64,000 nucleotides of DNA from Candidatus Zhuqueibacterota bacterium (GCA_016783505.1 JADHWK010000007.1:1-64000), one strand, 5' to 3'. Counted from the stretch's first letter, positions 5,481-57,354 are shown. The notes: generated by a model not told the origin, from the sequence alone. Numbers and translations: made by a program.

Positions 5481-7352
5481 ATGAAAACCAAAATACTAGT
5501 TATTCTATGCTTAATTCCATTTACATTAGGCTTTGCCCAGGGACAAGCAGATTATTATGGTATATATTTTAAAACCTTTCCTTGGACAATTGTCGAATAT
5601 CCCGAATGGGTTGATGCAGTTGTAAGCGACTGGGGAGCTACAGGTGTTCAACTGGAGGCAGTATGGCGTATATTCGAGCCAGATCGCAGTGATCTTGAAG
5701 CTGATCCTATCTATACATGGACACAATTTGATCAATCTCTTGATACTTTAATAAACAAGGGCGTAGACATTTCATTTAGAGTAAGAATAGGTTCGCTTTT
5801 ACCAGATTGGGTTGATTTTAAAATGGATGCTACCAGTGCATCCGATGGACTAAACCATGTGGGATTATTTGATAAGGAGGATTTTCACATTGGTGATAAA
5901 GGAAATCATATTTGGAAAGGCCAAGCACCATTATCAAACAATAATTCTAATCGATATTTTAATTTAACTTCGAAAAAAGGTATTGAAACTATGACACGGT
6001 TTTATGAAGATGTAGTAAAACATATTAAAGAATATTTAATTGATTCTGGACGTTATGGTTCGGATCGTAGACCTATAGAAATTATTCCTACGGTAAATCT
6101 TGTTGGTGAAATGGAATTGAATTCGGACTGGAACATGACGGGATATTCACCAATTGAAATAGATTCTTTTCGGGTTTATTTAGTGAATAAATATCTTACA
6201 ATTGATAGGTTAAATTCCAGATGGTGTTCGAATTTTTCAAATTTTTCTGACATTAATTCAATAGATTCCAGTTGGCGTTGGCATGAGTATAAAAATATGT
6301 CATTTAAAGATTATACATATCCTCCTGGAAGATTAGATTGGTTAAATTTTAAATTTAAACAATCGAAAAAGATGGTAGATCGTTTTGCAAAAATTACCAA
6401 AAAATATGGATTTAAAATGGGAGTGCAACTCGGTTGCTTGCATGATTATCGCTTAGATTTTAGAGGATTCTACGACCCTACTTCTTTATTAGGACGTGCT
6501 TACGCTTTTAGACTTGCGGACATAAAAGGTTATAAAGAGGTTTTTGCATTTGGTGCAAATTATGCTCGCTCTATTTGTGAGTATTGGGATTGGAAGTGGA
6601 AGGATGGAGAAAGACGTGGGTTCACATCGGAAACAAATAATCATATGTATGGATATGTTTCCGGTGATTCTGCTGATTATGCAAGAGAACTAGCCAGTAT
6701 TTGGGCGGATCAAGTAGAATCATATTATGACAGGGGCGCAGATATTCATGTAATAGCTGGTGGTTGGGGTAATTCTCAAGATCGTGAGGGCTTTTTTATA
6801 AACGGCTCATTACTTGTCAAAGACTCAACAATACAAAGCTGGTATGAAGAATTTAGGACAGTGTTACAAGAAAAAAAAGGTACAAATAGACAAACTGTAA
6901 TCAATAATAAAGCTATTCATTTAAGTACAAATTGTTATTTAATCATAGCAAATAGATCATCAGAAAACATATTTTTTCTTTATAATTCTGTTAAACCAGA
7001 TTCAGATTATATAGATCCATCTGCAAGTTATCAAGATGATGGTTGTGATATTGTAACAAATTATATGATAATATATGATCCAGGATATCTAAATAAATAC
7101 AATAATTTTTCACTTACTAAAAGTAGCAAATATATGTCCGATGAGGTTTATCTTTCTCTGATGAGAACGGACATAGATGATAATATTGTAAATATCAGAA
7201 ATGCAACCGCAATTTATGATAATGGACATGGTGAATTTAAAACAACACCGGGCTTAAGAAATGAGATTGATAAAGAAAGAATATCACCTATTCATTTAAT
7301 TTGGCGTTCTCGGCGTGATCTGAAGATAAAATTTCCTGATTCAAATAGGTAA
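5481..7352 (+). CDS. Secreted GH42/beta-galactosidase-like TIM-barrel protein
   Basis: SD GGAGGGG then signal peptide MKTKILVILCLIPFTLGFAQ; W..FEP....Y.W..FD; SFRVYLVNKY.TIDRLNSRW..NF..F.DI; LDWLNF. Confidence 0.65.
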   Translation: MKTKILVILCLIPFTLGFAQGQADYYGIYFKTFPWTIVEYPEWVDAVVSDWGATGVQLEAVWRIFEPDRSDLEADPIYTWTQFDQSLDTLINKGVDISFRVRIGSLLPDWVDFKMDATSASDGLNHVGLFDKEDFHIGDKGNHIWKGQAPLSNNNSNRYFNLTSKKGIETMTRFYEDVVKHIKEYLIDSGRYGSDRRPIEIIPTVNLVGEMELNSDWNMTGYSPIEIDSFRVYLVNKYLTIDRLNSRWCSNFSNFSDINSIDSSWRWHEYKNMSFKDYTYPPGRLDWLNFKFKQSKKMVDRFAKITKKYGFKMGVQLGCLHDYRLDFRGFYDPTSLLGRAYAFRLADIKGYKEVFAFGANYARSICEYWDWKWKDGERRGFTSETNNHMYGYVSGDSADYARELASIWADQVESYYDRGADIHVIAGGWGNSQDREGFFINGSLLVKDSTIQSWYEEFRTVLQEKKGTNRQTVINNKAIHLSTNCYLIIANRSSENIFFLYNSVKPDSDYIDPSASYQDDGCDIVTNYMIIYDPGYLNKYNNFSLTKSSKYMSDEVYLSLMRTDIDDNIVNIRNATAIYDNGHGEFKTTPGLRNEIDKERISPIHLIWRSRRDLKIKFPDSNR

Positions 7353-32391: not shown

Positions 32392-32802
32392 ATGGAAGAA
32401 TATAAAAAGATTCTTATCGCTAAGGGGATAAAACCGACGTTTCAGAGAATAAAGATCTTGGAATATCTTAGTCGGAATAGAACGCATCCCACAGTTGATA
32501 TGATTTATACTGCCCTATTTAAAAAGGTTCCTACTTTATCAAAAACTACCGTGTATAACACATTGGATATATTAAGGGAAAATGGATTGGTGGATGTGCT
32601 GACGATTACTGAATCAGAAATGAGATACGAGTACTGCACTGAACCGCACCATCATTTTTTATGCAGAAGATGCGGACGCATCATTGATCTGGATGTAAAA
32701 TGCCCTTATTTAGAAAAAATGAAATTCGGTGAACATAAACTTGAACAAATCCACGGCTATTTTAAAGGCATTTGTAAAGATTGTTTAGAGGAGGCACAAT
32801 GA
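32392..32802 (+). CDS. perR: Fur-family regulator, probably PerR
   Basis: T.QR, HPT, TVYNTL, HHHFLC..C, C..C; heads a rubrerythrin cluster. Confidence 0.8.
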   Translation: MEEYKKILIAKGIKPTFQRIKILEYLSRNRTHPTVDMIYTALFKKVPTLSKTTVYNTLDILRENGLVDVLTITESEMRYEYCTEPHHHFLCRRCGRIIDLDVKCPYLEKMKFGEHKLEQIHGYFKGICKDCLEEAQ

Positions 32803-50192: not shown

Positions 50193-51020
50193 TTGAAAAC
50201 AATTTATAGCATTGTCAACGTTCTGCTATTTTGTGGAACAACCCTTGCTGATATCATTCATGTTCCTGGCGATCAACTCACGATTCAAGCCGGGATTGAT
50301 TCCGCTGCTGTAGGTGATACCGTGTTGGTGGATACGGGGCGGTATGTGGAACACATCAACTTTAATGGTAATGATATAGTTATCGGGTCACTGTTTCTGA
50401 TTACTGGCGATACTTCCTACATTACTCAGACGGTGATTGATGGAGATAGTAGTGGAAGTGTGGTGACGTTTGAGAATGGTGAAGATTCCACAGCGGTGTT
50501 AAGTGGTTTTACCATTACCAATGGACAAGGTGGAGGCTCTTGGCCACATTACACTGCTGGTGGAATTACATGTAAATATTCTTCCAGCCCAAGTTTGGTG
50601 AATGTAACGGTGAGTGGGAATACGACATTTTGAGAAATGTCTGGAAGTGGAACTGGCGGTGAGATTATCTGCTAGGCTAATTCCAATCCCACATTGACCA
50701 ATGTGATCATTATCAGGAATTATGCTAATTACGGTGGCGGGATTTTATGTTGGAATAACTCCGGTCTGAGTTTGGTGAATACCATTCTCTGGAACGATTC
50801 GCCGCAGGAAATTTGTTTCAGCGAACAGGCTGCTTCGAATTCTATTACCATTGCCTATTCTGATGTGCAGGGCGGTGAAGCAGGAGTTGTGACTAACAAC
50901 AACGGCACCGTGAACTGGCTGGAAGGGAATATTGATGCCGATCCCCTGTTTGCAGATCCTGATAATGGCGATTTTCACCTTCAAGAAGGCTCCCCTTGCA
51001 TTTTAGATAAAAGGAGATAA
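50193..51020 (+). pseudogene. Secreted right-handed beta-helix (pectin-lyase fold) protein, disrupted
   Basis: IHVPGD..TIQ.GI, GFTITNG, GGGI.C repeats; in-frame TGA 50631-50633 and TAG 50673-50675; cut off after GSPCI. Confidence 0.85.
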
Positions 51021-51024
51021 TAAT

Positions 51025-51591
51025 ATGTCATCTGATAAGCTTCAAGCAATCATTTCTGAATATCAAATGTTGAGAGAAGAGATCCAGCGGAGATCTACAG
51101 ATCAGATGCATTGTGTTGTAGCTTCTGTTCTCTCAATCGGAGTTTTAATATCTCTCATTGCACAAAATCCCACTAAATATTCACCCGTTCTTATTGTAAT
51201 TCCATGGATTTTAGCGGTTTTTGGAATAATTTGGTTGGATTGTAACTGCAGTATTTTCTTGCTAGGACAATATATAAGAGATGAAATTGAAGGGAAAAAA
51301 TTACCTGCATTGTTGGAATCTTCTGAGATTAACTGGATAGGATGGCAACATTATATTTATAAAAAACGTGAAAAGTGGAAATTTCCATCATATATCGTAT
51401 TTATTTTGCCATTCTTCTATTTTGTTATACCTTCCATCGTTTGTGTAATTGCTTATATAATTCTACGCTTATATGGTATTATTACGATGCCAAAAACAAT
51501 TGAATGGTGCTTTTTAGCAATTGGCATAATCTTTATTATAATATTATTATATAGTTGGTACAAATCATATGAAACCACAAAGGGAAGATAA
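51025..51591 (+). CDS. AT-rich 4-TM hypothetical membrane protein, cassette-like
   Basis: SD AGGAG, EYQMLREEI, two TM pairs; followed by attC-like sequence. Confidence 0.75.
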   Translation: MSSDKLQAIISEYQMLREEIQRRSTDQMHCVVASVLSIGVLISLIAQNPTKYSPVLIVIPWILAVFGIIWLDCNCSIFLLGQYIRDEIEGKKLPALLESSEINWIGWQHYIYKKREKWKFPSYIVFILPFFYFVIPSIVCVIAYIILRLYGIITMPKTIEWCFLAIGIIFIIILLYSWYKSYETTKGR

Positions 51592-51654
51592 AATAAAAAA
51601 GGTGATATAGAACAAATAGAGAGTTATGTCAAATGAGAGCAGCACGGCACAGGC

Positions 51655-51732
51655 GCATGACACAGCATAAAAGGTTCGTGCCTGATGGCAGTCACCTAAA
51701 TTTTTGCTTCGTAAAAACTTCTTTTATGCTGG
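51655..51732 (+). other. attC-like site truncated by the IS
   Basis: GCATGAC (degenerate R''), 11-bp IR CAGCATAAAAG/CTTTTATGCTG, inner TTTTTGCTTCGTAAAAA hairpin; R' missing where the IS end begins. Confidence 0.5.
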
Positions 51733-51759
51733 ATCTATAAAAAGGTAAAAGTCAAGAGA

Positions 51760-52065
51760 AAAAAATCCCTCTACGCCCTGCCCGTAGGGTCATGGAATTA
51801 GTGTCATCTCGAAATTAGTCGGGATAGGGCTCTGAAACAAAGCAAAGATTTCCGGCTCTTTGATAATCTTTTCAGGGGGAATGCTGCGAACAGATTGGGT
51901 TTTGCCAAGTCGACTGACCGTATATGTTACGAAGGGGTGTCATTCCCGCTTGCGCAGGATGACCATCAATCTATTCAACCTGCCGGAACGGTCTTGGGAA
52001 CTAAACGGTTATCGTATGTATACGGTCGGCCCGAACCCGATAATAAACGTTAGAACGTGCCTCTT
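51760..52065 (-). ncRNA. Candidate bridge/seek RNA of the IS1111 element
   Basis: ~300-nt structured non-coding right end (GACCGTATA/TATACGGTC stem, terminal hairpin plus T run); position matches IS1111 guide RNAs. Confidence 0.6.
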
Positions 52066-53122
52066 TCAGCCGTTATTCGCGCTGTTGTTCGTGATCCAGG
52101 CCGGCTTGATTTTAGTTCCCCGATACAGTTCATTGTTTCGCAGCATAAAGTACACGGCCTTAGCTAGTTTTCTGGCAGTGGCCACAATAGCCTTGCCGTG
52201 TCCTTTAGTGGCCTTTTTATACTCGTAATAGGCCTTCAGTCCCGGATCTTTTCGAATGGCAACGAGGGCAGCCTCAATAAATGCCGTTCTCAGATACTTA
52301 TTGGACTGTTTATTGATTTTTCCTTGATAGAGCTTATCTGCTGATCCCCGGGTGTTGACAGCCAATCCGGCGTATCGGAGAAGGCTCAATTCGTGGGAAT
52401 CGATGGACCTTTACAATCTCGGCGATGATTGTCGAAGCATGTACTACTCCAACCCCGTCAATCGAGTTCAGAAGCGGATAGAAGGGGTGGTTAAGGATAC
52501 GGTTTTTGATCATCTCATAGAGTTCGTCGATGAAAATGGAGAAGGTCTCGATGAGGTTAAGCTGCTTGGCGATGATCTTTCTGATGGGCTCGGGGAAATT
52601 CTGAGCTTCGATCCAGCGGATACCCTTGGAACCGAACACATATTTGTAGAGTCCTTGAAAATTGTACTTATCCAAGTAGGCACGGATGGTGTTTTTGAGG
52701 CTGGTGCGTAGGGTCACTAGCCGATATCGCTGGCGGTTGAGTTCCCGGAGGTGCCGGTACCAAATGTCAGGCACGTAACAGGTTGCAACCATTCCGGCTC
52801 TTGAAAGTTGAGCCAGCATAGCCGAGTCGTACTTGTCATTCTTAGCATGAACCGTTGCAATGGCTCGATTTAGAAAGGGGTTAGCCATTGTGAAGGGGAT
52901 TCTCTTGAGATTGAGATAATCAGCGAGCCAGAAGTAGTTTCGAGTAGCCTCGAAGGTCACATGGATGGGTTCAGCGAAGGAATCGAATAAGACATCCAGT
53001 TCCTCGGGCCGATTGGGGATCTGATGGGTTCCCAGTTTTTTGCCGTCAGAATCGACTACAGAAAGAACAGAGTTCTTTTTGTGCAGATCCAGACCGATTT
53101 GATATTGAATTGAAGAATCCAT
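52066..53122 (-). pseudogene. IS110 DEDD transposase/recombinase with a frameshift near 52395
   Basis: IGLDLHK, FEAT, KND..DS; C-domain YAGL......S, LRTAF.EAA, AIVATARKL in a different frame. Confidence 0.9.
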
Positions 53123-53249
53123 GTTGACCTCCTTTTGAGACTTGAGTTTATAACTAAGATACAAAATATTCTCTTTCGAGACTACCTTTTTATAATATAA
53201 ACTTTTTACGACATTCATAAATAGAAAACCCAAGGGGGGTGAGAGGATC

Positions 53250-55448
53250 ATGAAAAGGTTATTAATCGTTTCAAACAGGTTGCCAATTACTGTCGAAAAA
53301 AGGAAGGGTAATTTACTTTTTCGGCAGAGCACAGGAGGCCTGGCTACGGGACTAAGGTCATTCTATAGATCATATGACAGCATATGGATAGGATGGTCTG
53401 GAATTACATTAGATAAAATTAGTACCGAAGAAAAGAAGAGTATTGAAACAAAACTGATGTCTGAGTTTAACTGTTACCCGATTTTTCTCTCGCAAAATAA
53501 CATTGAAAAGCACTACCATGGTTTTTGCAACAAAACTATCTGGCCCCTTTTCCACAGTTTCACCCAATATGCAGTTTACGAAAAGGGTTTATGGGAGTCT
53601 TACAGGCAGGCAAATAAACTTTTTTTTGATGCAATTATAGAAAAATCTGAGCCAGATGATATTATCTGGATACATGATTATCATTTAATGCTTCTTCCCA
53701 AACTTTTAAGAGAAAAATTATCGAATGCTTCAATAGGTTTTTTCCTCCATATACCCTTCCCAACCTTTGAAATATTTCGCCTACTTCCATGGCGTAAGGA
53801 AATTTTAGAAGGACTCTTAGGAGCAGATGTTATAGGTTTTCACACCTATGATTATGCACGACATTTCCTCAGTAGTGTGCAGCGTTTGTTAGGATACGAA
53901 TACAGTTGGGGTCAAATTACTGCCTATGATCGTATAATAAATACAGATGTATTTCCAATGGGAATAGACTATCAACTATTTTCAAAAGCTGCTCAGGATC
54001 CAGGAGTACAAAAAGAGGTGACGAAGTTTCGTAAAAAACTTAGCGATCGTAAAATAATTTTATCAATAGACCGCCTAGACTATACAAAAGGGATACCCCA
54101 ACGCTTAGAGGTTTTCGACAACTTTTTGAAAAAAAACCCAGAGTATAAGGAGAAGGTGAGTCTTATTTTGGTTGCAGTTCCTTCACGCACACAGGTAGAA
54201 CATTATAAGTTACTGAAAAAACAGGTAGATGAACTTATCGGCAAGATTAATGGAGAACATGGAACGATTGGGTGGGTTCCCGTCCTGTATCTCTACCGCT
54301 CTCTACCCTTTTCCAGCCTTGCTGCTTTGTACAGTATTGCTGATATTGCCATTGTCACCCCTCTAAGAGATGGTATGAATCTCATAGCAAAAGAATATAT
54401 CGCAACTAAGGCAGATGGAAAAGGGGTCTTGATATTAAGTGAAATGGCTGGAGCATCAAATGAGTTGGGTGAGGCAATCATAGTAAACCCTAACAACAGC
54501 AATGAGATGCTAGAGGCATTAGAAAAAGCCCTGATGATGCCGGAAAAGAAACAGATAGAACACAATAAGCCAATGCAAGAACGCCTCAAACGGTATAGTG
54601 TGGTGAGATGGGCAGAAGAGTTTATAGATAGATTGCTATACACCAAAAAACTTCAGAGTGAGATGTATACGAAGATGCTAACTTATGAAGTCAGATGGAA
54701 ATTGGTTAGCGATTATCGTAAAAGCAAGAGGCGGCTTTTACTATTTGATTATGATGGAACTCTTGTCCCTTTTTTTGGTAAACCTGAAGAGGCAAAACCC
54801 AGCAATGAGATTTTAAAATTACTCAAAAAACTCGCTGAAGATCAAAAAAATGAAGTGGTTCTCATAAGTGGACGTGACAAAGATACTTTAGAATCTTGGT
54901 TTGGCAACTTAAATCTGAGTCTTGTGGCTGAATATGGTGTGTGGCTAAAAGAATCTGTCCGTCCGCCAGGCGGGAAAGAGTGGGAATTAATAGAACCCCT
55001 GACTTCCGATTGGAAGGAAAAGATACGACCAATCCTTGAACTGCATGTAGATAGAACCCCTGGTTCTTTTATTGAAGAGAAAAATTTTTCCCTTGCCTGG
55101 CACTATCGAAAAGCCGATCTAGGATTAAGTTTAATGAGGGCAAGGGAGTTAATGGATAATCTCATAAATCTCACAGCCAATCTTAACCTTGAGGTTCTGG
55201 AGGGGAACAAAGTAATTGAAGTAAAGAATGCTGGTATAAACAAGAGCCGGGTTACGTTAAGATGGATTTCAAAGAAAAGTTGGGACTTTATCTTGGCGGT
55301 CGGTGACGATTGGACTGATGAAGATATTTTTGCTGTGTTACCGGATGAAGCTTATTCATTAAAAGTTGGTTTAACCCCTACGAAGGCAAAGTTCAATCTT
55401 AATTCAGTAATGGATGTAAGATTATTACTAAAAGATCTGGGGAGGTGA
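53250..55448 (+). CDS. otsAB: Bifunctional trehalose-6-phosphate synthase/phosphatase
   Basis: VSNRLP, GGLA, WIHDYHL, DRLDYTKG, DGMNL.AKE; HAD DYDGTL and GDD.TDE. Confidence 0.93.
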   Translation: MKRLLIVSNRLPITVEKRKGNLLFRQSTGGLATGLRSFYRSYDSIWIGWSGITLDKISTEEKKSIETKLMSEFNCYPIFLSQNNIEKHYHGFCNKTIWPLFHSFTQYAVYEKGLWESYRQANKLFFDAIIEKSEPDDIIWIHDYHLMLLPKLLREKLSNASIGFFLHIPFPTFEIFRLLPWRKEILEGLLGADVIGFHTYDYARHFLSSVQRLLGYEYSWGQITAYDRIINTDVFPMGIDYQLFSKAAQDPGVQKEVTKFRKKLSDRKIILSIDRLDYTKGIPQRLEVFDNFLKKNPEYKEKVSLILVAVPSRTQVEHYKLLKKQVDELIGKINGEHGTIGWVPVLYLYRSLPFSSLAALYSIADIAIVTPLRDGMNLIAKEYIATKADGKGVLILSEMAGASNELGEAIIVNPNNSNEMLEALEKALMMPEKKQIEHNKPMQERLKRYSVVRWAEEFIDRLLYTKKLQSEMYTKMLTYEVRWKLVSDYRKSKRRLLLFDYDGTLVPFFGKPEEAKPSNEILKLLKKLAEDQKNEVVLISGRDKDTLESWFGNLNLSLVAEYGVWLKESVRPPGGKEWELIEPLTSDWKEKIRPILELHVDRTPGSFIEEKNFSLAWHYRKADLGLSLMRARELMDNLINLTANLNLEVLEGNKVIEVKNAGINKSRVTLRWISKKSWDFILAVGDDWTDEDIFAVLPDEAYSLKVGLTPTKAKFNLNSVMDVRLLLKDLGR

Positions 55449-55452
55449 CAAA

Positions 55453-56661
55453 ATGCATAGTTTGGAAGATTATTATGAAATTGTAGGTGATAGGGTTATA
55501 TCTGAGATACACAAGAGGGCGAGAAGGCTTTTTGGAAAGCATATATTACACGTTAATTCTACATATCAGGGCGGCGGTGTTGCCGAAATGCTGGCATCCC
55601 TTGTGCCTCTCATGAATGACGTAGGGATTGACACCGGCTGGAGAATATTCCATGGAAACCCTGATTTTTTTACAATCACCAAAAAATTTCACAACGCACT
55701 TCAGGGCGATAAGATTAATTTGTCCGAGATAAAAAAACGCTTGTATTTCCTGGCCAATGAAGATTTTTCTGTCTATACACACTTAGATCACGATTATATA
55801 ATCATCCACGATCCACAACCCCTACCTTTAATAAAATATTATAAGAAAGGTCAGCCATGGATTTGGCGGTGCCATGTAGATTTATCGCATCCCAATAAAG
55901 AACTATGGGAATTTCTTACAAGGTTCATTCTTAAGTATGACATGATTATTATTTCAAACGAAAAATATAAGAGAGAAGGCCTACCGGTAGAACAAAGGAT
56001 TATTTATCCTGTTATCGATCCTCTATCTCCTAAAAATATGGAAATATCCGACACAACGATTTCAAAATATCTTAAAAAGTTTGGTGTTCCTACAGATAAA
56101 CCGATCATAACTCAGATATCGAGATTTGATAAGTGGAAAGATCCGGTAGGTGTAACAGAAGCATTTAAAATTGTTAAGAAACATGTAGATTGTAGATTAG
56201 TATTATGTGGAAGTATGGCCACCGATGACCCAGAAGGCTACCAGATTTATGAGAAGGTAAAAAGAAAGGTTGAAAAATTTATTGCCAATAACGATGTAAT
56301 TCTTATAACTACCGAGAACAACATTCTTGTAAACGCTTTACAGCGCAGTTCTGCAGTAATAATACAAAAGTCTATAAGGGAGGGCTTCGGGCTTACGGTA
56401 ACTGAGGCGCTTTGGAAGGCAAGACCTGTCGTGGCTTCAAATGTAGGGGGGATTCCTCTTCAAATAAAGGATGGAGAAAATGGATTTTTGCTTGATCCTT
56501 ACAACACAAAAGGTTTTGCTCAGATGATTGTTCAAATATTGCAAAATCCCAGACTGGCAGAGAAGATGGGTAAAGAAGGTAAGGAAATTGTCAGGAAAGA
56601 ATTTCTCATAACAAGGCTTTTGTCAGACTATTTAGATTTATTTAATGATATGGAAAAATGA
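55453..56661 (+). CDS. treT: Trehalose glycosyltransferring synthase (GT4)
   Basis: NSTYQGGGVAE, HDPQP, WRCH.D, SRFDKWKD, EGFGLTVTEALWK. Confidence 0.88.
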   Translation: MHSLEDYYEIVGDRVISEIHKRARRLFGKHILHVNSTYQGGGVAEMLASLVPLMNDVGIDTGWRIFHGNPDFFTITKKFHNALQGDKINLSEIKKRLYFLANEDFSVYTHLDHDYIIIHDPQPLPLIKYYKKGQPWIWRCHVDLSHPNKELWEFLTRFILKYDMIIISNEKYKREGLPVEQRIIYPVIDPLSPKNMEISDTTISKYLKKFGVPTDKPIITQISRFDKWKDPVGVTEAFKIVKKHVDCRLVLCGSMATDDPEGYQIYEKVKRKVEKFIANNDVILITTENNILVNALQRSSAVIIQKSIREGFGLTVTEALWKARPVVASNVGGIPLQIKDGENGFLLDPYNTKGFAQMIVQILQNPRLAEKMGKEGKEIVRKEFLITRLLSDYLDLFNDMEK

Positions 56662-56666
56662 ACGAC

Positions 56667-56746
56667 GTATAACAGTGGATAAGAGAGGAATCAAAGATTT
56701 CTCTAAATTGTCTTCTCTAACCTCTTTTATTCACAACCCGTTATAT
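56667..56746 (+). other. attC-like integron cassette recombination site
   Basis: GTATAAC ... GTGGATAAGAGAGG / CCTCTTTTATTCAC ... GTTATAT, 80 bp, starting 6 nt after the treT stop. Confidence 0.65.
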
Positions 56747-57354
56747 GAAATTGCGGTTCTTTAAATGCTTTTCAAAGGTAGTGGGGTTAAATAAGTAGAA
56801 GAGGCAAGCAAGAAATTTATGATATTTTACTCCCACCTCTCTTCTACTGTTTATACCAGTGTAAAGGACAGCGGTGTCCTATTAACTATACGTTATCTTT
56901 ATGAGCCTCGACGTCGTCGTAGCACCGAATAGGCAATCTGGGAAGATATTTTACAAGAGTTCTCCAAAGGTGCAGATATAGATTTCGCATATCCTACACA
57001 ACGGTTCTATAATAATCGACTCGAGGTAAAGGCTGGGATTAGACCTTTCTCCGGGGAAGAGAATACAAAAACATCCGGAAATAAGCCAAAGTAGCTCACA
57101 ATATAACTGTTAAGACGTCAGTCTTTTATAAAATCCTAAGGATTAAATCCAACGGATTAAACTGAAAAAATGAGAGGCATTCAGTCATTTTGAAAATACA
57201 CCCACTACTAGTTTGTGCTACAGTAGATGAAAACAATGGATTTATGTTATTCGGTCAGGCGCCCGATTGATTTCGATATTCGAATTTCGGATTTACTTAT
57301 GATTACCACAAAAACCCTGAAAGAGGGGAAATTTTAACCTAATGTCCTGAGCCA

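Follow-up and report, generated by a model that had tools for sequence, protein, structure and literature searches.

A stretch of 64,000 nt from the genome of Candidatus Zhuqueibacterota bacterium (GCA_016783505.1 JADHWK010000007.1:1-64000; analysed at its full length and referred to below as the window) contains a dead member of an attC-targeting lineage of IS1111 insertion sequences, located in a decayed cassette array. In the reading we favor, to which we assign a probability of roughly three in four, an RNA-guided element of the IS1111 family inserted in the antisense orientation into an attC-like site, between the 3' arm and the GTT box, and has died since. Ten relatives, with 42-66% amino acid identity, are likewise inserted between the 3' arm and the GTT box of attC-like sites, and this shared position supports the description of the element as attC-targeting and of its lineage as one without named members. 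In the genome analysed here, trehalose genes belong to a cassette-like unit of the decayed array, in which the element rides along as a dead passenger.

The element and its transposase gene

The element is of the IS110/IS1111 type, is about 1469 bp long, and consists of the following parts (coordinates are those of the window):

51733..53201, minus strand: IS1111-family insertion sequence, a dead copy as judged from its gene; each end +/-1-3 nt
51736..51747: right subterminal inverted repeat, 12 bp, TATAAAAAGGTA, a perfect match to the left repeat
53183..53194: left subterminal inverted repeat, 12 bp, TATAAAAAGGTA, a perfect match to the right repeat
51750..51755, minus strand: TTGACT, a -35-like box facing outward from the right end; TTGAC is kept in relatives
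52385..53122, minus strand: transposase gene, N-terminal part (DEDD/RuvC-like), with the ATG at 53122
52066..52377, minus strand: transposase gene, C-terminal part (Transposase_20), out of frame with the N-terminal part
52378..52384, minus strand: break in the transposase gene, 7 nt versus 9 expected

On its right side, the element starts directly after the CTTTTATGCTG arm of an attC-like hairpin (51722-51732), just as an earlier note on this DNA had described; this arm pairs with CAGCATAAAAG at 51663-51673. The same note had assigned the element a span of 51655-53215; an element is indeed present there, but this span includes the hairpin, and the element itself is limited to about 51733-53201. 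Both ends are uncertain by 1-3 nt because T/A runs are common to the target and the element. On the left, similarity to a sibling that is about 96% identical to the window copy (X6, from the metagenome of another study) stops at 53202; on the right, other attC copies in the sequencing runs match the window up to and including 51733 and then continue with AACGTTA. The third base outside the right repeat differs (T, C or G) between relatives, including the pair L032 and L033.

The 12-bp repeats are set 7 nt (left) and 3 nt (right) inside the ends as drawn, with extensions that are ambiguous by 1-3 nt. Passages of PMC11187229 give as the rule for IS1111 elements subterminal repeats of 11-13 bp with asymmetric extensions, 7 on the left and 3 on the right. 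In most uninterrupted sites of this genome, AAA separates the arm from CGTT, so that reconstructing exactly what preceded the insertion requires the assumption of a 1-nt shared core; such a one-base core would reconcile the window with the consensus of uninterrupted sites, and the 7/3 rule from the literature also fits. The TTGAC part of the outward-facing box is present in all 10 aligned right ends (the window and nine relatives). By analogy with ISEc11, as described in a part of PMC11187229, we infer that TTGACT would be one half of a junction promoter formed on circularization.

The two parts of the transposase gene, read in two frames, match DEDD_Tnp_IS110 (PF01548; E 3.9e-24) and Transposase_20 (PF02371; E 2.6e-11). 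The non-coding DNA of the element amounts to about 318 nt downstream of the transposase gene versus 79 nt upstream. Subterminal repeats and a guide RNA encoded downstream of the gene are listed as IS1111 features in passages of PMC11187229 and PMC11208160.

The X6 sibling has an extra letter after 52379 and another after 52384, and with these two letters its gene reads in frame, like that of the intact relative L029. The window copy, the gene of which is 2 nt short compared with both the X6 sibling and L029, lacks an intact, active recombinase and, judging from this frame break, is dead. The domain located behind the position of the break reportedly carries the catalytic serine, according to the IS621 work.

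An assembly artefact does not account for the junctions of the element: a 22-kb Logan contig from run X2, possibly the source sample, spans 51000-54000 with 0 differences, break included, and a contig from run X5 (another study) crosses the left junction (52968-53318), also with 0 differences. Further copies of the element were detected neither in the assembled genome (60% complete) nor in the 40 other genomes searched as relatives, among which only G032 shares the hairpin. A contig joining across the element, which would represent an empty site, was not seen in four runs.

The attC-like sites and the trehalose cassette

The sites and genes surrounding the element are all on the plus strand:

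51025..51591, plus strand: upstream cassette ORF, 188 aa, with no Pfam family; ends 59 nt before the attC-like site
51650..51732, plus strand: attC-like site 1 minus its 3' box (model R1, 87.7 bits, E 8e-19)
51655-51661, plus strand: degenerate 5' box of site 1, GCATGAC
51663-51673, plus strand: 5' arm of site 1, CAGCATAAAAG, pairing with CTTTTATGCTG
51722-51732, plus strand: 3' arm of site 1, CTTTTATGCTG; two inner hairpins lie between the arms
53202..53216, plus strand: remnant of the 3' box of site 1, consisting of C, TTTT (mostly GTTA in the family), then TACGACATTC
53250..55448, plus strand: otsBA, fused trehalose-6-phosphate synthase and phosphatase (Glyco_transf_20, E 1.6e-163; Trehalose_PPase, E 4.4e-49)
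55453..56661, plus strand: treT-like trehalose synthase (TreT_GT1, E 1.1e-59)
56662..56756, plus strand: attC-like site 2 (model R1, 35 bits, E 3.3e-6), directly after the treT-like gene

The stretch 51657-51735 has five more copies in the genome, with 75-91% identity, and two additional copies were recovered by short-word BLAST. A covariance model of the site (R1), built from 12 copies, produced 18 matches at E<1e-3 and 22 at E<=1 in this genome and 13 and 17 matches, respectively, in genome G032; in both genomes, the sites form same-strand arrays of single hairpins spaced 0.7-3 kb apart. The sites start with ..TAAC and end with GTTA.., and several copies have the canonical GCCTAAC/GTTAGGC. 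In integrons, the core boxes of attC follow the consensus RYYYAAC and GTTRRRY; inverse core boxes of this kind are present in the family consensus, and the window's own copy is degenerate at both, having drifted to TGAC instead of TAAC at the 5' box and to TTTT instead of GTTA at the 3' box. The arms vary between copies with complementarity kept, 8 of the 16 modelled pairs showing compensatory changes, and the DNA fold of site 1 has a z of -2.1 on the plus strand and -3.1 on the minus strand.

The nearest upstream ORF is on the strand of the site in 18 of 18 cases, and the downstream ORF is on the same strand in 13 of 13, as determined with a crude ORF picker, which takes the longest ORF (90 aa or more) within 400 nt. 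An Rfam scan of 50500-54000 at E<=1 returned no match, and an ORF located between two attC-like sites on contig C53 has no Pfam match. In the window, a weak match to the site model (14 bits, E 0.32) at 32548-32587 includes both ends of the model and lacks 68 middle positions; it could be a chance match, or else a collapsed or solo site.

The summed contig depth over the hairpin stretch (51606-51807) is 104-118 in run X2 and 271-358 in run X8, and over nearly all of the rest it is 13 (X2) and 0-4 (X8), with a bin near 53626-53726 at 51.6 in X8. Given that other copies of the hairpin lie on many contigs, this high depth indicates that the site class is very abundant in the X2 and X8 communities.

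An integron integrase scoring above the TIGR02249 cut-off was detected neither in the genome analysed here (60% complete) nor in G032. The only integron-integrase-like gene of the former is an internally deleted remnant in two frames, located on another contig (G000:C44:2865-3190), in which positions 1-55 and 262-304 of the TIGR02249 model stand side by side. A GTTAGACGAAAAG motif about 170 nt downstream of this remnant looks like the end of an attI site.

Beyond the left end of the element, the sequence reads CTTTTTACGACATTC (53202-53216). The earlier note was thus right that the final GTT is missing there and that the left end adjoins the otsAB leader, the fused OtsA-OtsB gene starting at 53250. 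The TACGACATTC portion of this flank fits the 3' extension of the site family, at exactly the expected offset. A PWM covering the ten positions after the four-letter core, derived from 26 other sites (one of which, L030, has the same ten letters as the window), scores the flank at 9.96 bits at the expected offset and at -5 to -13 bits at eight other offsets. As many as or more bits are reached by 382 of the 5,023,054 10-mers of the genome (7.6e-5), and the flank matches that of L030 at 13 of 15 positions. Because the PWM fits in register, we consider the left flank to be a 3' site end belonging to this class, in which the core has two changes. Site 2 closes otsBA-treT, so the trehalose genes represent the next cassette-like unit, and no deletion is needed to place them beside the element.

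The segment 53250-56756, about 3.5 kb long, comprises the otsB-otsA fusion and the TreT-like gene, with attC-like sites on both sides, and is an unusually large two-gene cassette. By splitting the site, the insertion probably locked this unit together with the 188-aa cassette. Between site 2 and the next gene, about 600 nt (56760-57350) contain no ORF of 100 aa or more.

Relatives, insertion points and the predicted guide RNA

Of the relatives, two come from species genomes, with 66% and 48% aa identity, and 11 from metagenomes (42-63%); members were seen in an Actinomycetota MAG, a Bacteroidetes MAG, the genome analysed here, and many metagenomes. In all 10 relatives with a readable right end, this end abuts the hairpin arm; the right-end row of an eleventh relative, L037, was a chance match and was dropped. 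The left end is preceded by ..AACG, the complement of C+GTT, in 8 of the 10 readable loci (window included; L032 and L033 have one flank in common in this count), the exceptions being the window (AAAG) and L034 (ATCG). In L032, the boxes that flank the element, GCAGCTAAC (5') and GTTAGCTGC (3'), are complementary over 9 nt; in L029, from the Actinomycetota MAG, the element occupies the middle one of three same-strand sites; and the left end of the X6 sibling abuts C|GTTAGGC. The element is antisense to the neighbouring ORFs in both the window and L029. These right and left ends bear out the central proposal of the earlier note, namely, an attC-targeting element of the IS1111 type; a predicted guide-RNA region lies downstream of its gene. 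Alignment of the flanks of other copies, which the note had suggested as a check, revealed an attC-type target common to the copies rather than unrelated targets.

Two of the metagenomic loci, L032 and L033, have 1723 of 1724 nt in common across the left flank and the whole element, with unrelated right flanks. The flanks of L032 make up one coherent site and those of L033 do not, a pattern that points to a flank exchange at the right end of the element.

The L029 transposase scores 226.5 bits on the NF033542 model ('IS110 family RNA-guided transposase', cut-off 140). The L029 locus (5698-6711 of the Actinomycetota MAG contig) has an integron-like layout that consists of a recombinase, a GTTAAGTGAAAT motif, and three or more cassette sites belonging to the class found in the window; these sites are divergent from the recombinase, with the motif in between. 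The recombinase scores 245.5 bits on NF040815, above the cut-off of 220, and 234.7 bits on TIGR02249, below the cut-off of 265, and lacks the stretch that marks integron integrases; for this reason, the term attC is used here in a wide sense. A true integrase (412 bits) is present in genome G042, and we draw no link between it and the attC-like site class.

The protein search returned 199 proteins at E<=1e-20 among 1208 candidates, and the best 120 of the 199 were used. Among the matches listed, 53 database clusters, all of them unnamed metagenome proteins, are 45-57% identical to the L029 protein, and the next proteins after this group reach 36% identity at most. Since this group, among the matches listed, contains no IS names, the new lineage proposed in the earlier note is supported as one without named members.

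Alignment of the regions downstream of the gene for the transposase in ten elements revealed a common core, and the consensus fold of this core has 28 pairs, 11 of them with compensatory changes. From nine sequences, a two-module layout is predicted, in which, by our reading, each module would be composed of a guide, a TAACC-type stem, a hairpin, GGTTGAA, and another guide. The segment order is the one that passages of PMC11187229 describe for IS1111 seekRNAs, in which the segment matching the top strand lies on the 5' side. In the window, the predicted features are:

51915..52090, minus strand: predicted seekRNA/bridge-like RNA, about 175 nt, two modules (NCR alignment, consensus fold)
52075-52089, minus strand: candidate top-strand guide
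52043-52053, minus strand: box CTAACGTTTAT in the predicted guide RNA
51968-51980, minus strand: box GGTTGAATAGATT in the predicted guide RNA

AACG/CGTT forms the first stem in the window and AGCC/GGCT in L029; the other elements have AACC/GGTT there. After this stem, ..AACGTTTAT corresponds to the letters of the left junction in seven of eight tested loci, the window, with AAAG in its left flank versus the conserved box AACG, being the exception; after the second stem, ..ATAGATT corresponds to the right end of the element. A candidate arm guide precedes the first stem. It pairs with the right junction at 12 of 12 positions in L038 and, in L029, at 10 contiguous positions, three of them G-T (10/12), and at 4-9 of 12 positions in the other seven of the nine elements. 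The 66 non-cognate pairs used as a control gave a mean of 6.06 and a maximum of 10, and only L038 and L029, the two closest relatives of the window in this test, stand out. For the window, 4 of 12 positions pair, the same number as for L035, which resides in a coherent site.

Given this 4/12 and the AAAG in place of AACG, the position of the window copy is poorly explained by its own predicted guides; as the arm guide is weakly established, with strong fits in two of nine elements, the poor fit is not proof of a rearrangement. An 8-nt pairing between the window guide and the inner part of the hairpin was rejected, being at chance level by estimate. The strict predicted cognate site, CGCGAAACGTT, is absent from the assembled genome, and the donor-side 5' guide of module 2 could not be assigned consistently.

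By analogy, a live element of this lineage would produce an RNA about 175 nt long, encoded downstream of its gene. The RNA segment ..AACGTTTAT would correspond to the letters of the left junction, that is, the complement of C+GTT together with the start of the element, and a second segment, located upstream, would pair with the variable hairpin arm. The second module, with ..ATAGATT.., would read the element's own right end, and the recombinase would then join a circular copy to the target without duplication.

Alternative readings and known systems

The earlier note had proposed that a later deletion or recombination joined the element to otsAB, so that the element would have been first inserted in a complete attC site and its left flank swapped afterwards. 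Such a swap would be in line with the absence of GTT after the left end and with flanks that misfit the predicted guides of the element, and flank exchange appears to occur in this lineage, given L032 and L033 with their unrelated right flanks. We nevertheless regard it as unlikely for the window, where the family 3' extension is found in the left flank at the exact offset, with a score that is rare in the genome background and with close agreement with the L030 flank, and where otsBA-treT ends with an attC-like site of its own. A swap in which the 3' end came from a different site of this class is possible and would look identical. It is decidedly improbable, in our judgment, that the hairpins are REP/BIME-like repeats or RNA elements, such as terminators, and that the element targets REPs like ISPa11. 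REP-targeting IS1111 members are known, as stated in a part of PMC11187229; an intact integron integrase is absent from both this genome and G032; and the strict orientation of the hairpins behind genes is compatible with a role at the transcript level. However, the ..TAAC and GTTA.. end boxes with the canonical pair in several copies, the occurrence of single hairpins in same-strand arrays with long spacing, the divergence of the L029 array from an integrase-like gene with GTTAAGTGAAAT in between, the internally deleted integrase remnant, and the lack of an Rfam family match all argue against repeats of this kind.

The misfit of the guides might also be explained if a sister copy with another arm guide had provided the guide RNA in trans, or if the insertion was off-target, which we consider somewhat improbable. 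This reading would add to the main explanation, insertion into an attC-like site between the 3' arm and the GTT box, rather than replace it. A seekRNA acting in trans works for ISEc11, according to passages of PMC11187229. The arm guide of the window resembles those of L029 and of the X6 sibling, unlike the local arm, and the assembled genome contains no site that matches the arm guide at the junction; however, the assembly (60% of the genome) holds no further copy of the element, and the assignment of the arm guide is itself tentative.

An attC-targeting IS1111 group (ISPa21, ISPst6, ISKpn4, ISPa25) is said to go back to Tetu & Holmes 2008 and Post & Hall 2009. Such elements are well known, as noted in a part of PMC3001079, and their frequency has been described for clinical as well as environmental integrons; Siddiquee et al. 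2024 (PMC11187229) demonstrated seekRNA for ISKpn4 and ISPst6. The lineage of the window has in common with this group a DEDD transposase, subterminal repeats, and a long downstream non-coding region; insertion into attC sites at a single constant position, antisense to the cassette genes; and, as predicted, a segment that matches the target within the downstream RNA region. The Discussion of PMC3001079 places the insertions of the known group near the 5' end of attC, in the antisense orientation, whereas the window lineage is found at the 3' end, one base before GTT; because the position in the known group is taken from this description, the contrast is provisional.

We tentatively suggest, as a possibility short of even odds, that the element is a fossil of an unnamed, cross-phylum IS1111-type clade that homes to the 3' (GTT-proximal) end of attC, opposite to the known group, with a two-module guide RNA that reads the conserved GTT box and the variable arm, at sites run by an integrase without the integron-integrase insertion. 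If this is true, a second lineage addresses the opposite end of the site, using a fixed guide together with a variable one, which would widen the range of natural guide designs, and such elements raid environmental cassette systems across phyla. More generally, attC-targeting insertion sequences can freeze or reshape cassette arrays and are natural RNA-guided recombinases aimed at a structured, semi-conserved target.

With the bridge recombinases of the IS621/IS110 group (Durrant et al. 2024), the lineage would share, as modelled here, a two-module RNA that addresses the target and the element ends and, by analogy, guide segments on both sides of a stem and recombination via a circular form. 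Unlike in IS621, the predicted RNA is encoded downstream of its gene and the element has long inverted repeats, which is the IS1111 arrangement according to a part of PMC11208160.

The attC-like sites themselves have in common with the attC sites of integrons and CALIN the imperfect palindromes, the ..AAC/GTT.. boxes, and the organization in same-strand arrays behind ORFs. CALIN, reportedly the term used by Cury et al. 2016 for attC clusters without an integrase, further resemble the genome analysed here in the lack of a working integrase. Unlike integron attC, the sites are three-way in their inner structure and have 4-5 additional nt separating the 3' arm from the GTT box, and, unlike in integrons, the recombinase beside the L029 array lacks the integron-integrase insertion.

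Among 2763 plasmid records, the best match to the transposase has 35.8% identity, and the names are generic only. Three enterobacterial plasmid matches that were inspected lie outside integrons, and one of the three adjoins a Tn3-family transposase gene, which would fit an element of the IS4321/IS5075 type.
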